A stretch of DNA of 63,775 bases, filler included, from Collodictyon triciliatum (GCA_043381765.1; 9 parts of 9 records of this genome joined end to end with filler, not necessarily neighbours in it), one strand, 5' to 3'. Positions 274 to 7,112 are shown, counted from the first letter of the whole stretch. Numbers and translations are program-made. Notes: generated by a model from the letters alone, not told the origin.

Positions 274-3200
274 TTATTGGACAACACATTCATCTTTGTT
301 CGTGTTTGGTGATGGGCTTGTTGTTTTTGGACTGGTTTGAGACTGTTTTTCTGCACGCGAGCGAGCTTCTTCGCCTCTCGATGACAATACCGAGGGATTG
401 GGTATGTTCTGGGAGAGTCCTTTGTATGGAGGCGCGTAGGCGACAGGCTGAGGAAGCTGCTCTGGTGTAATTTCAGGTTGCTCGGTAGCCGGAAGGATTT
501 TACTTGATGAGAGCATCGAAGATAGCGATAGTTTGATGCTTTCATGGTCAATAGCACTAGTTCTTGGTATGGCATTCCTAGTCTTTGAATGTGAGCGAGA
601 CTTTGAGTGAGTCGTAATGGAAACATCTCTAAAATAACCCGTCGACCGAGTGGTAGCAAAGGCAACGTGCTTGACATACCGTAGTGACGGATGAGAGACT
701 TGAGCCAGTGACGAAACCAAATATGAGTCACTTCCAAAGTGCCCTAAGGTCATATGGCCATTGCCGATAAATATTTCGTAGGAAATGTATGAATCCTGAT
801 CTAAATTATTGTTAATACCCTCTCTCTTTGATACGTAATGACCTCTCTTTGAAGTCACCCATGGGTGAGCAACGAAACCGTCAAAGAAATAAACGCAATT
901 TTTCTTTCGGTTTGTCGAAATGTAAATCGTAAAGGCAGGGTCCATTTCATCGTGATTTGTTGATAAAAGGGTCATCCCAAGGGAGTTCTCCATTTGCCTG
1001 ACTTCTGTAGATGACATTTTTGAGGAATTTAAAGAACTAACCACGTGAGTCCCTTTCAAAGTCGTGCTGTTGCAAGAAGAGGGAGGTGACAAAGTTTCAG
1101 AAAGTGTTGAGGTGGAAGATAAAAAAGATGATGTTTTTCTAGAATCTGATAGGGGAATATCGTTAGCAAATAAATACACAATAACATGAGAACCAAACGC
1201 CCTAAACTTTACGCTTCCATTCCCTATTGATGGAAGACATCCAGGAATAACGACGATATTGTTAGTTTCATCAACACAAGGGGTACTAAATGTATATCCC
1301 TCTTCTTTGCACATAAAATTTGCATACTTCCAAGTAATATTCATGATCTCATCGTTAGCCAGGCTGGGCCTCTTTTCGTCCGTATTATGAATCTCTTGGG
1401 TGAATCTGACAACTTCGTTTGAGTCGATGTCCATCTGAAAGACGGTCTTCATCGTTCGTTTGGACTTTTCACTTAATGAGTCGTATATATTCTGAAAAAT
1501 AAAGTACATTTAGATCTTTGTTTTATCATTTACATGCCAATAATCAATCACGTGCATTGCATAGCATCGTGTTGTCTTGTCTTGTGGTGTACTATGTTGT
1601 ATTATATAGTTCTAAATTAAGTTGGGTTTTATTTTCCTTTCAAAAAAATCAAACCTTCGGCATTATTATTTTGTGTATATATGAAATTGGAATCAGCATT
1701 GGTAGATGCAGTTCAGGGATAAGGTGTGGGTCAATATTCTTCCATCGAGACATGATTTCCTCTATGGTATCACAATTTGAATTCTCTCTTGTTGATTTCA
1801 AATAGCACATAAAATCTGACGCGACTACTTCATCCCATCCATCAGTTGTGGCGTGGAGTTTGCTTCGATGAAATGCATCGATTCCATCCTCTCCTTTTTG
1901 CAAAAGCCATGGCCTTCCTCCTACCTCCGTGCCTCTAATAAAACGAGTACCAGCGCAGGTTGTAATATTGGTGTCTGGGTGATAAAGCAGCTCTTGCTTA
2001 AATATAATTGTAATTGGTCCATAATAGTGACCCTAGATATAGGTATTTAAAATTATTATAACTGTTCATATTTGATATCTATTACTATTTATTAGAAAAA
2101 GGAAAATAACTTTGTTTGGTCCTAATACGGCAAAGACATGAGAATTTGTCCCCATTCGAATATCATCTGTATATTGAATTCCCATCGGCTTCATTTTCAA
2201 ACTATAGCAAGCTTCTCCTACATCAATCGCTATCAACTCTAATTCACTTATATTCTCATCACTAAGTCCGTTTTCCTTACATGCTCTTTTACTGATGATT
2301 ATATCTGTAACATCAATGTTAAATTTTTCTGTCAACCCAGAATCGATGTGGTGTCTTGTCTCAATACAATTAAGAACCACCAATTTGATTAGATTCTCTG
2401 CATGCTTGATTCTCTCATGCGCTGCATGAGCTTTTTCTCCAGGTTTAGGGTCTATGATAGCCCGAATTCTGGGGTGCTTTCGAATCTCCTGTGACACGTA
2501 GTCTGGCTCATGCAAGTAGCTCATGTATTCACTGGACATGACCATTCCATGGGCCAATATAGATTCAAAAATAAGACTTGTGCACCGGTGCACAGGCTTC
2601 AGTTTCCTAATGACATCAACTAGAACAGGAGGAGGATTCCCATACTTTTGGATGTATGGTGCCAATCTTAGTCTCAGACGTTCCAGATTTTCATAGAAGT
2701 TGATATTAGCATTCAAACAATTCGAGTGACAAGGTGGCAAAACATCTCTCTCGTGCATATAGCATTTTATATGTTCTTTGTCCAAACGTAGTGGGCACTG
2801 TAAGCCACGAGCACATGATTTCCTAAAATCAAAGACATCCACATGTGAAAAGATTGATGTATGTCCATCATTTTCTACTAAACTGCACATGGTATTATTT
2901 GCGCAAACAGGCTTTCTTATGTGAACAAAATGTCTAGTATGAAAAGGATTATTTGTTTGTGTGCAAAGTGCACCAATCTGGCAAATATGAGAGTATGCAT
3001 CAAAGTGTGCATCACTTGTGTCATCGCATCCGTATGGAGTATATTTACATATAGGCAAGAAGGGATGAGATAAGTTAACAGCGTGTTCTTGGTCATTAAA
3101 GAATCTACAAAAAGTTCCTTCCAAACATTGAACTTTCTTGTGTCGATAAATCGATTTGTGTTCTGCATCATCTTTCAGTAAACAGTCTAGACCGTTTGGG

Positions 3201-6200: not shown

Positions 6201-7112
6201 TATGTATATAAAGAAAGAAGGCCTTTTAATTGGGTATTTTGCTAAAGTTAAAATCACCATCGATATCCTCAATATGGTCCATGATATATCCAGTCAAATC
6301 GATTGAATCTACAATTTCTACCTACGGAAAACATCGAGCATTTCAAAAAAATCATCCAAAGATGATCGAGAGGATTTTGTGCGTACTTGAATTTCGTATT
6401 ATCAACAATATTCAGAAAGGGTTTTGATTGTTTTCATTTATTAGTTAATGCTTAAAAAAATTACAATGTGATGTCCAAATGTCCTAGGGGTCAAAAATTG
6501 TGTTAAAAATAGCTCGGACTGACTTTGTGTGCAATATAGAATAGTGTAGTTGTGCGCCCGGCATTGTGTAAGTCCTAAATGGCTCATACGATTGGATAAT
6601 AATATATTTCCTGTATTGTCCGCGCTTTCCTTCTCAAATCCCCTCAGTATAATTAATCTTTTGCATTCATCGTACGACTCTTTTAATATTCGAATCTAAT
6701 ATTAAAAATATGAATTATTCTAACTATTTTTAAGGCTAAAGAAGACCTAATTAGGTTTTAAAGAAAAAAAGTGACGATTCATTGTTGAAAATGTTATAAA
6801 TACTTTCTTCATATTTTGACAACAGGCAAATAAAATATTTGTTGCAAACACTTATAGAACCATCTCATATCTTCGTAATAGACTAGCAGCAGATTAGGGG
6901 TCGGTAACAGACTGGCATTATTTCATCACAGAATTATTACGTACTGGCTCCTCGGGACCAATGTCTGGGTCGCCATCCGCTCCAAATACAAGGCAGCGCC
7001 TGCGATCTCCATAGTAGACCCGTGTCATTCGGTCAAGGTCATATCCCCGTAATCTATCGTCGAGTTGCTCGGGTGTCTCGTCTCGAAACAGTATGAATAG
7101 TGCAAAGTCCAT
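274..7112 (-). CDS. Multi-exon gene: RRM-like domains + microbial-type PARG (TIGR02452/DUF2263-like) macrodomain + 10 tandem PBZ-type CCHH zinc fingers + ART-fold (DarT/DUF3626-like) domain + beta-rich C-terminal domain
   Basis: Core exons 5686-2111, 2032-1655 and 1491-274 join in frame through GT-AG introns. Upstream exons 6695-6465, 6321-6258, 6155-5947 and 5820-5791 also join in frame; the start at 7112 is tentative. Motifs: RRM (IVFFHGLP...CAAILFKEKRDAVRC), PARG-like PGGDYKVGGFGQEEDLFQRTN, ten C-x5/6-C-x6/7-H-x5-H units at 2753-3487, ART-like VHRC..FESILAHGMVMS / HVFAVLGP..GHYYGPITIIFK / PELHLPMLIPISYIHKII. Confidence 0.85.

Follow-up and report, generated by a model that had tools for sequence, protein, structure and literature searches.

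In this study, we analysed a 63,775-nucleotide stretch of DNA from Collodictyon triciliatum (GCA_043381765.1), referred to here as the window, and investigated a gene at positions 274–7112 of its minus strand, the strand to which all features of this gene belong. The locus is a single, expressed and spliced eukaryotic gene with seven exons, which lies entirely within one N-free block of the window (1–7488). Its 1947-residue product belongs to an uncharacterised protein family found in several eukaryotic supergroups, the core of which consists of a microbial-type poly(ADP-ribose) glycohydrolase (PARG) domain, zinc fingers resembling the poly(ADP-ribose) (PAR)-binding PBZ type and a domain with an ADP-ribosyltransferase (ART) fold. 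An initial annotation of this DNA had listed five sequence features, namely domains resembling RNA-recognition motifs (RRMs), a macrodomain, CCHH fingers, a domain with H / YG / E motifs and a beta-rich tail, and all five were recovered, in this order, within 274–7112 of the minus strand.

The gene region is AT-rich (G+C 30–42 %) and is dominated by an open frame of 3.6 kb (2066–5725, stop to stop), which is bordered by smaller frames with GT..AG edges. A word-indexed protein search with the large exon returned a single relative, P0001, with 35 % identity over 93 % of the query; P0001 is the 1864-residue product of a Trinity transcript of Diphylleia rotans deposited in EukProt. Using tblastn, P0001 matched the window not only in the big exon but also at 7100–6939, 6695–6447, 6165–5959, 1605–1165 and 930–616, all of them colinear. 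The seven-exon model (7112–274) has 1947 codons, with a sole stop at its end, and six introns of 78–260 nt, all of which are GT..AG, and in a global alignment its product and P0001 are identical at 659 of 1827 aligned positions (36 %), end to end.

Contigs of one public run, X1, which is stored as contigs, has 0.23 of the sampled words and carries the label 'RNA?', itself a guess, cover 314–807, 3992–4424, 4529–5024, 5224–5555 and 6069–7092 of the gene. They skip exactly 6156–6257, 6322–6464 and 6696–6944 (introns 3, 2 and 1), with CT..AC ends corresponding to GT..AG on the minus strand, and the contig end at 807 carries 24 letters that we take to be the reverse complement of the SMART template-switch oligo, in the orientation of a minus-strand mRNA. 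The splice-junction check that had been proposed for this gene thus gave three of the six introns exactly, while introns 4–6 lie beyond the coverage of X1 (958–3921 and 5746–5973 are uncovered). Exon 1 (6945–7112; residues 1–56) begins with the ATG at 7112, ends at the donor gtacgt, matches P0001 by tblastn (61 % identity, E 1e-16) and, judged by its sequence pattern, encodes a first RRM-like unit. A contig links it from 6945 to 6695, the start of exon 2 (6465–6695; residues 57–133), which is joined in turn to exon 3 at 6321/6465 (reported as 6318/6462, cut +3). Exon 3 (6258–6321) has 64 nt, ends in phase 1 and has contig joints on both sides, the second one at 6155/6258. Exon 4 (5947–6155) extends to residue 224 and shows 41 % identity to P0001 by tblastn; its acceptor is confirmed by a contig, and its donor at 5946, like the borders of intron 4 as a whole, is inferred. 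Exon 5 (2111–5686; residues 225–1416; 3576 nt) is overlain by the three contigs between 3992 and 5555 and encodes the RRM-like repeats, the PARG-like macrodomain, all ten fingers and the ART-fold domain up to two thirds of its length. The remainder of that domain, with Y1420-G1421, H1434-P-D and E1523-x-H1525, is encoded by exon 6 (1655–2032; residues 1417–1542), and the beta-sandwich and the low-complexity tail by exon 7 (274–1491; residues 1543–1947; stop at 276–274), over which the contig at 314–807 lies. The junctions 5/6 (VLGPNK/GHYYGP) and 6/7 (IIMPK/NIYDS) align to P0001 without gaps.

The absence of read support for introns 4–6 in X1 and the unusual length of exon 5 (3.6 kb) could be taken to mean that neighbouring genes or a pseudogene have been wrongly fused in this model. 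However, this is difficult to reconcile with an open frame of 1947 codons interrupted by six canonical introns, with the identical domain order in one assembled Diphylleia transcript, with the gap-free alignment over junctions 5/6 and 6/7 and with the three junctions visible in contigs, and we regard such an artefact as very improbable. Likewise, an origin of the exons from separate genes was rejected on the open frame, the colinearity with the Diphylleia transcript and the junction evidence. Five ordered domains and ten tandem fingers held in common with a protein of 36 % identity are far beyond chance, and we are highly confident of the anatomy of both the protein and the gene. Three open reading frame (ORF) pieces had originally been thought to splice into one protein; one gene it is, but it is assembled from seven exons instead of three pieces.

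The macrodomain (3491–4324; residues 679–956) had been singled out for its QEE loop, and it is indeed of the microbial PARG type when assessed with hidden Markov models (HMMs). It matches PF10021 (PARG_cat_microb) above the gathering cut-off (30.8 and 32.6 bits versus 23.5; E 1.2e-7), with the Pfam-matched core at 4303–3896. With the stricter whole-protein model TIGR02452 the window protein reaches 22.3 bits, which is under the cut-off of 50, and P0001 reaches 54.2 bits; P0001 also matches the PARG chains of T. curvata (3SIG, E 1.6e-7) and D. radiodurans. The catalytic loop (YPGGDYKVGGFGQEEDLFQRTN, 4001–4066) was compared with the pattern GGG-x(6–8)-QEE, which is recognizable in PGGDYKVGGFGQEE: the QEE (4030–4022) is retained and the third Gly of GGG is replaced by Asp. 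In DrPARG, the catalytic residue is the second Glu of this PARG signature, and an E112A mutant is inactive (PMC6445106). When the window protein was aligned with 37 PARG-bearing family representatives, QEE was found in 31 of these, another residue preceded EE in four and two were not covered at this position. A second loop further downstream, GCG(A/V/W/S)(F/Y/A), is likewise present in 31 of the 37 and variant in four, including P0001 (two not covered), and its position aligns with 'gawgcgvf' of the D. radiodurans PARG. This GCGAF-type loop of the family is the Gly-rich phosphate-binding loop of macrodomains, presumably equivalent to the 'diphosphate-binding loop' named in PMC6445106.

The macrodomain is followed by the array of ten CCHH zinc-finger motifs (2753–3487), which are mostly spaced C-x5-C-x7-H-x5-H (eight of ten); one finger each has C-x5-C-x6-H-x5-H and C-x6-C-x6-H-x5-H. 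These had been described as ten PAR-binding-type fingers with an x6 spacing, and while the number and the resemblance to the PBZ type were borne out, the x6 spacing is the exception. A profile built from the ten fingers matches the APLF PBZ entries 2KQB/2KUO at E 3e-6, over both APLF fingers, and the next matches are CCCH fingers at E >= 0.023. An identity as CCCH RNA-binding fingers was rejected on these E values and on a coverage of the Cys-x5-Cys half alone. APLF was reached with the ten-finger profile alone, as phmmer with the finger array against the PDB found nothing, and the Pfam PBZ model (PF10283) gave no match on the array at E <= 10; those PBZ fingers of the relatives that do pass Pfam are additional C-terminal ones, which the window protein does not have. 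Compared with the PBZ consensus [K/R]xxCx[F/Y]GxxCxbbxxxxHxxx[F/Y]xH (PMC9404506), six of the ten fingers have the Gly after the first Cys, and nine have the late aromatic that stands two residues ahead of the last His.

The ART-fold domain comprises residues 1206–1542 and is divided by intron 5. Its N-terminal part (2111–2743; residues 1206–1416) contains beta1 with H1257-R-C, a helix, beta2 and a helical insert of about 130 residues. The H / YG / E motifs correspond to H1257 (in KPVHRC), Y1420-G1421 and E1523 (in PELHLP), which stand at invariant or nearly invariant positions among 30 aligned relatives. The motifs shared by these relatives are P-x-H-R-C, F-x-S-I, M-S, D, G-T, F-x-x-L-G-P-x-x-G-x-x-Y-G, F, H-P-D-x-N, R-x-W, K-x-H, W, D-x-H and E-x-H-L-P, and the window protein retains all 11 invariant and 32 of the 33 nearly invariant family positions. 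An AlphaFold2 model of residues 1230–1864 of the orthologue P0001 (50 alignment rows; predicted local distance difference test (pLDDT) 84.9, predicted template modelling score (pTM) 0.84) displays an ART beta-core, and in a VIA-align comparison with 48,161 chains, ART enzymes fell on model residues ~5–385, with SopF, OspC3, CopC and four DarT entries as the top structural matches. In the model, H1257 lies in the predicted beta1, which is followed by a helix and a short strand in the manner of ARTs, Y1420-G1421 precedes a core strand and E1523 opens a late strand. A Foldseek search with the whole two-domain model against the PDB and a viral library returned beta-sandwich matches alone and is therefore uninformative on the ART part. 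The domain had been called DarT/DUF3626-like, which agrees with the fold result since SopF carries DUF3626 (PMC6682159); this likeness holds for the predicted fold, but no membership in either family was found at the sequence level. DUF3626 (PF12294) had no match in the window exons, in P0001 (E <= 10) or in the 30 relatives (E <= 0.001), a profile of the ART family searched against the PDB did not reach SopF, and neither PF06128 nor the DarT models of Pfam and PADLOC matched. A search of the ESM Atlas with the ART-like region gave best scores of 0.88, under the threshold for a lead, and a Shigella_OspC-bearing cluster at rank 5 is treated as a lead only. As this is the best conserved module of the protein and its structural neighbours all bind NAD+, it is probably an NAD+-using transferase.

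At the other end of the protein, the first 383 residues of exon 5 (4538–5686) form an array of about five beta-alpha-beta-beta-alpha-beta units. These were seen up to residue 381 in an AlphaFold2 model of the first 452 residues of the exon (five-row alignment; pLDDT 67.1, pTM 0.67), the structured part of which has mostly pLDDT 70–90. Foldseek with this model against the PDB gave 90 matches at E <= 1e-3, with the best E values from 3e-6, and the listed matches are all multi-RRM proteins (Prp24, Raver1, SFPQ/NONO/PSPC1, SHARP, hnRNP A1/A2B1, FIR and nucleolin). In Pfam, no RRM model exceeded its threshold on exon 5 (RRM_PARP14_3, E 0.028, 14.9 bits versus a cut-off of 24; RRM_7, E 0.097; RRM_1, E 0.14, 12.5 bits versus 20.7), P0001 showed a weak match to RRM_occluded (E 0.026), and exons 1–4 appear by eye to contain similar units. 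The fold matches support the RRM-like domains of the initial annotation at moderate model confidence, and we conclude with the same moderate confidence that the array probably consists of tandem RRM-like folds. Two Diphylleia rotans isoforms of P0001, P0152 and P0153 (1176 residues), match the PARG, finger, ART and tail regions and lack a match to the RRM-like array; alternative starts or splicing may thus make this array an optional part of the protein.

The C-terminal region had been noted as a beta-rich tail; it is encoded by exon 7, and its orthologous part folds as a two-sheet beta-sandwich of the galectin/concanavalin-A-like type with pLDDT > 90 in the P0001 model. In the window protein, the sandwich (604–1491) runs from residue 1543 to about 1838 and contains a Ser/Thr-rich insert of about 66 residues (window 1180–980, exon 7), which is absent from P0001 and may form a disordered loop or serve as a site of modification. 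The protein ends with a low-complexity Ser/Pro/Thr-rich tail (277–603; residues ~1839–1947), which is longer than that of P0001, where the equivalent region has pLDDT < 50.

A HMMER search with the C-terminal 635 residues of P0001 against 1.84 billion representatives retrieved 262 at E <= 1e-3, 147 at <= 1e-10 and 38 at <= 1e-30, and the ART-like domain thus marks out a family with 262 cluster representatives or more. In the clusters that were looked up, the named members come from Diphylleia rotans (four clusters), the bdelloid rotifers Rotaria, Adineta and Didymodactylos, Pharyngomonas kirbyi, Naegleria gruberi, Gefionella okellyi, Copromyxa protea, Euglena gracilis and Kipferlia bialata, that is, from CRuMs, Heterolobosea, Euglenozoa, Metamonada, malawimonads, Amoebozoa and bdelloid rotifers; further members are metagenome and assembly records. 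Some carry the UniProt names 'Microbial-type PARG catalytic domain-containing protein' or 'PBZ-type domain-containing protein'. Domain co-occurrence was scored against the regions of the window protein in the best 150 of the 262 representatives, all of which have the ART-like domain: PARG was found in 38, fingers in 70 and both in 37, and for the 52 representatives of at least 1000 residues these numbers are 38, 48 and 37. With Pfam on 30 relatives, PARG was recognized in 13, PBZ in seven and an ART of the R-S-E type in one. The family core is thus made up of PARG, fingers and ART-like domain, to which a single branch has added the RRM-like array and the sandwich. A first pattern search in prokaryotes met with an alignment of the family that is too variable; the pattern VF[SGA][IV]LGP[HN][LRT]G, a single and narrow one, matched five stretches, none of which was confirmed by tblastn as a prokaryotic relative, a result that does not prove the domain to be missing from bacteria.

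The window itself contains a second, divergent member of the family at 52442–57817 on the minus strand. The ORF 54281–57817 (1178 residues) aligns to residues 809–1256 of the protein described above (26 % identity, E 3e-32) and has about nine CCHH fingers of the same kind, a degenerate macrodomain with LQE for QEE and a diverged start of an ART-like domain, and the ORF 52442–53659 ends with five more fingers, of the C-terminal type of the rotifer and Diphylleia relatives. Pfam found nothing in these two ORFs. Both family genes lie each within a single N-free block.

A bacterial-type PARG with PBZ repeats has been described in Adineta vaga (Perina et al. 2014, PMC4245714, citing Slade et al. 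2011). Proteins of Rotaria, Adineta and Didymodactylos match our ART-like domain at E 1e-50 or better, carry PF10021 and PBZ and have the order PARG, finger array, ART-like domain; the parts of PMC4245714 that we draw on describe PARG and zinc fingers and do not mention an ART-fold domain. The rotifer members have kept the GCGAF loop and possess canonical C-terminal PBZ fingers that pass Pfam, whereas the window protein has neither, and has in addition the RRM-like array and the beta-sandwich, in common with Diphylleia only. It had been suggested that no characterised protein with this architecture was known, with the reservation that uncharacterised homologues might exist; such homologues are numerous and the PARG–PBZ combination of A. 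vaga is already in print. Our search of the literature, which was partial and may have missed a prior description, found none of an ART-fold domain in PARG–PBZ proteins. What appears to be new here is an unannotated ART-fold family within the ADP-ribosylation toolkit; the rotifer PARG–PBZ fusion was known, and the window gene is one more member.

Among better-known systems, the resemblance to SopF (Salmonella; DUF3626, PF12294; PDB 7DN9, 'Salmonella effector in complex with NAD and host co-factor ARF1'), OspC3 and CopC lies in the predicted fold; there is no sequence match to PF12294 or PF06128, nor to the PDB chains with a family profile. Moreover, these effectors are small proteins that bacteria secrete and that host cofactors activate, whereas ours is a domain within a 1947-residue eukaryotic protein, fused to PARG and fingers. 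DarTG differs in that no DarT HMM matches, that the window macrodomain is of the PARG type and fused rather than a separate antitoxin, and that the gene has introns and a eukaryotic host. The comparison with PARP14 is apt for the architecture, since the order of module types is the same (RNA-recognition-like domains, hydrolase-type macrodomain, reader-type modules and C-terminal ART) and there is the weak RRM_PARP14_3 match at E 0.028, but no module belongs to the same family: in Pfam, the window protein has no PARP catalytic domain, MacroD-type macrodomain, WWE or KH. The APLF PBZ fingers (2KQB, 2KUO) share with those of the window protein the CCHH ligands, the Gly after the first Cys (six of ten) and the aromatic residue two before the last His (nine of ten), but in eight of the ten window fingers the stretch from the second Cys to the first His is longer by one residue, the other positions of the consensus are poorly kept, as detailed below, the array is acidic and Pfam PBZ failed. 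Judged by HMM comparison, the protein stands outside the DUF3626, DarT, PARP and RRM families, and its likeness to them is one of fold or architecture.

We favour, by a small degree only, a working model in which the ART-fold domain is an active enzyme and the flanking modules serve in targeting or regulation. By analogy with its structural neighbours SopF, OspC3, CopC and DarT, the ART-fold domain would transfer ADP-ribose from NAD+; it retains all polar residues that the family conserves, among them the His of beta1, the Tyr-Gly and the Glu-x-His in later strands. In this orthogroup, the N-terminal RRM-like array and the C-terminal lectin-like sandwich might select the substrate or the location, and because of the array, the leading candidate for the target would be RNA or single-stranded nucleic acid, or else the proteins that it binds. 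The PARG-like macrodomain and the fingers of most relatives may bind or trim ADP-ribose in cis; in the window protein, where ligand-contact positions have diverged, they are more likely modules of altered specificity, or structural and regulatory ones, than a classical PAR eraser and reader.

Several observations weigh against an interpretation of this kind. The ART-like domain has no match to a known ART family in Pfam, PADLOC or NCBIfam, and its family profile found no ART among PDB sequences (the best match, ICOS ligand at E 0.045, is taken as chance). Since the intron splits the domain in the window, the fold assignment rests on the model of an orthologue of 36 % identity, and the equivalence to an H-Y-E triad is inferred from the positions of the residues relative to secondary structure. 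For the RRM-like array, the model has a pLDDT of only 67, the alignment five rows and the Pfam matches are sub-threshold. This array was seen in two of the 150 representatives, both from Diphylleia, and the beta-sandwich in four, so that a nucleic-acid reading is limited to the orthogroup of the window protein and does not extend to the family. The Gly-rich loop is absent both in the window protein, where a degenerate LNPFVNLGN (3683–3709) takes the place of the L(G/S)A(L/F)GCGAF of relatives, and in P0001 (LDGFLEDRK). In the fingers, the early [F/Y] is present in one of ten, the basic pair in none and the leading K/R in three, and the array is acidic (24 K+R versus 35 D+E, net charge -11). 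The loss of the PARG loop and the acidic, non-consensus fingers weaken a cycle of writer, reader and eraser in the window protein, and we found no biochemical data on any family member in the literature. The two roles that the initial annotation had assigned here are hence not supported: with the diphosphate-binding loop lost in this protein and its Diphylleia orthologue and kept in 31 of 37 relatives, a function of the macrodomain as a PAR eraser seems doubtful in this branch and plausible for the family, and with the PBZ aromatic and basic positions missing, that of the finger array as a PAR reader is likewise doubtful in the window protein.

The same modules bear on the idea that the protein is a PAR-processing factor of the DNA-damage response, in which a PARG-type eraser is recruited by PBZ-type fingers to PAR made by PARPs, a role already suggested for the PARG–PBZ proteins of rotifers, and the ART-like domain is a non-catalytic or regulatory binder of NAD+ or ADP-ribose. 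The PF10021 match with its QEE, the fact that APLF PBZ is the best match of the fingers and the joint presence of PARG and PBZ-like fingers in 37 of the 52 long relatives are all in line with it, as is the description of PBZ repeats on the Adineta vaga PARG in PMC4245714, which ties PBZ chiefly to DNA-damage-response proteins. However, the lost diphosphate-binding loop, the scarcity of PBZ aromatic (one of ten) and basic (none of ten) residues and the negative charge of the finger array speak against this idea for the window protein, and the ART-like domain, which is conserved better than any other module (it keeps 32 of 33 nearly invariant positions), has the pattern of an active enzyme and not of a relic. 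We consider this explanation rather unlikely. If one goes further and takes the degenerate macrodomain loop, the non-consensus fingers and the TIGR02452 score below the cut-off to mean that all three ADP-ribose modules are catalytically dead, the protein would be a pseudoenzyme scaffold, a large adaptor that binds RNA or glycans; the retained QEE and the strong conservation of the ART-like polar residues (H, R, C, Y, H-P-D and E-x-H) in 30 relatives and the window make this improbable.

The activity of the ART-fold domain postulated in the working model could also take a more specific form, namely that of a fused, DarTG-like modifier of nucleic acids for defence or genome conflict, in which the ART would modify bases or ends of single-stranded DNA or RNA caught by the RRM-like array, and the macrodomain in cis would reverse or limit the modification. 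Paralogue expansion is typical of conflict genes, and there are many paralogues per genome in this family, with four Diphylleia clusters, many in rotifers and the second copy in the window; the putative RRM-like array would also fit such a function. On the other hand, the DarT and PADLOC models have no match, the protein-modifying SopF, OspC3 and CopC score equal to or higher than DarT, the macrodomain is of the PARG type, which we take to be unlike that of DarG, and has a degenerate phosphate loop in the window protein, and the array occurs in only two of 150 representatives. The DarTG-like form is therefore, in our opinion, unlikely, and any specific nucleic-acid or defence version of the model is to be held as at best marginally more probable than that.

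The remainder of the window contains paired 44-N runs around the 12-mer TTAATTAATTAA (read at 7533–7544), with stops in all frames. Such blocks are found at 7489–7588, 15073–15172, 22654–22753, 30231–30330, 37821–37920, 45396–45495, 51939–52038 and 59511–59610, about 7.58 kb apart and all with the same 12-base gap as the first one; they have the appearance of artificial linkers or masks, so that sequences on either side of one may not be true neighbours. Upstream of the gene there are two microsatellites, (TGTA)x25 at 7387–7488 and (ATTATTGTT)x11.7 at 8697–8801; a tandem-repeat scan of 1–9000 found simple repeats upstream only and none within the gene, and an Rfam scan of 1–7488 found no family. 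Near the AT-rich gene region (G+C 0.22–0.42), beyond the first linker, a sharp G+C island extends from 9500 to 11500 (0.51–0.69, with a strong positive GC skew), the ORFs of which are rich in Gly, Arg and Pro on both strands. The ORFs 32374–33096 and 34844–35410 (plus strand) contain leucine-rich repeats (LRRs) of the form 'LxxLPxEIxxLTxL', which suggests that they are neighbouring genes for LRR proteins, and an ORF at 48482–49015 (minus strand) contains 'GANDVAN', presumably a signature of phosphate transporters of the PiT/PHO4 type.

Eukaryotic ADP-ribosylation has been studied mostly through PARPs, the ecto-ART (ARTC) enzymes, sirtuins and Tpt1. The locus described here points to a further ART-fold family, for which there is no Pfam model. 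Its almost invariable fusion to PARG and PBZ-like fingers argues strongly, at the genomic level, that this family works on or with ADP-ribose, and it thereby becomes a candidate for a new writer in eukaryotes. Given the structural likeness to SopF, OspC3 and DarT, one may ask how the ARTs of bacterial effectors are related to eukaryotic ones, and the loss of ligand contacts in the branch of the window protein may be seen as a natural experiment on the decay, or the change in specificity, of eraser and reader modules. More speculatively, the family could represent unrecognised but active eukaryotic ADP-ribosyltransferases with a SopF/OspC/DarT-like fold, mostly fused to their own PARG eraser and PBZ readers, with the RRM-bearing branch writing on RNA or single-stranded DNA in genome defence or repair. 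We put this forward tentatively and hold it to be less likely than not; if it were true, the family would be a eukaryotic single-chain counterpart of writer–eraser pairs such as DarTG.

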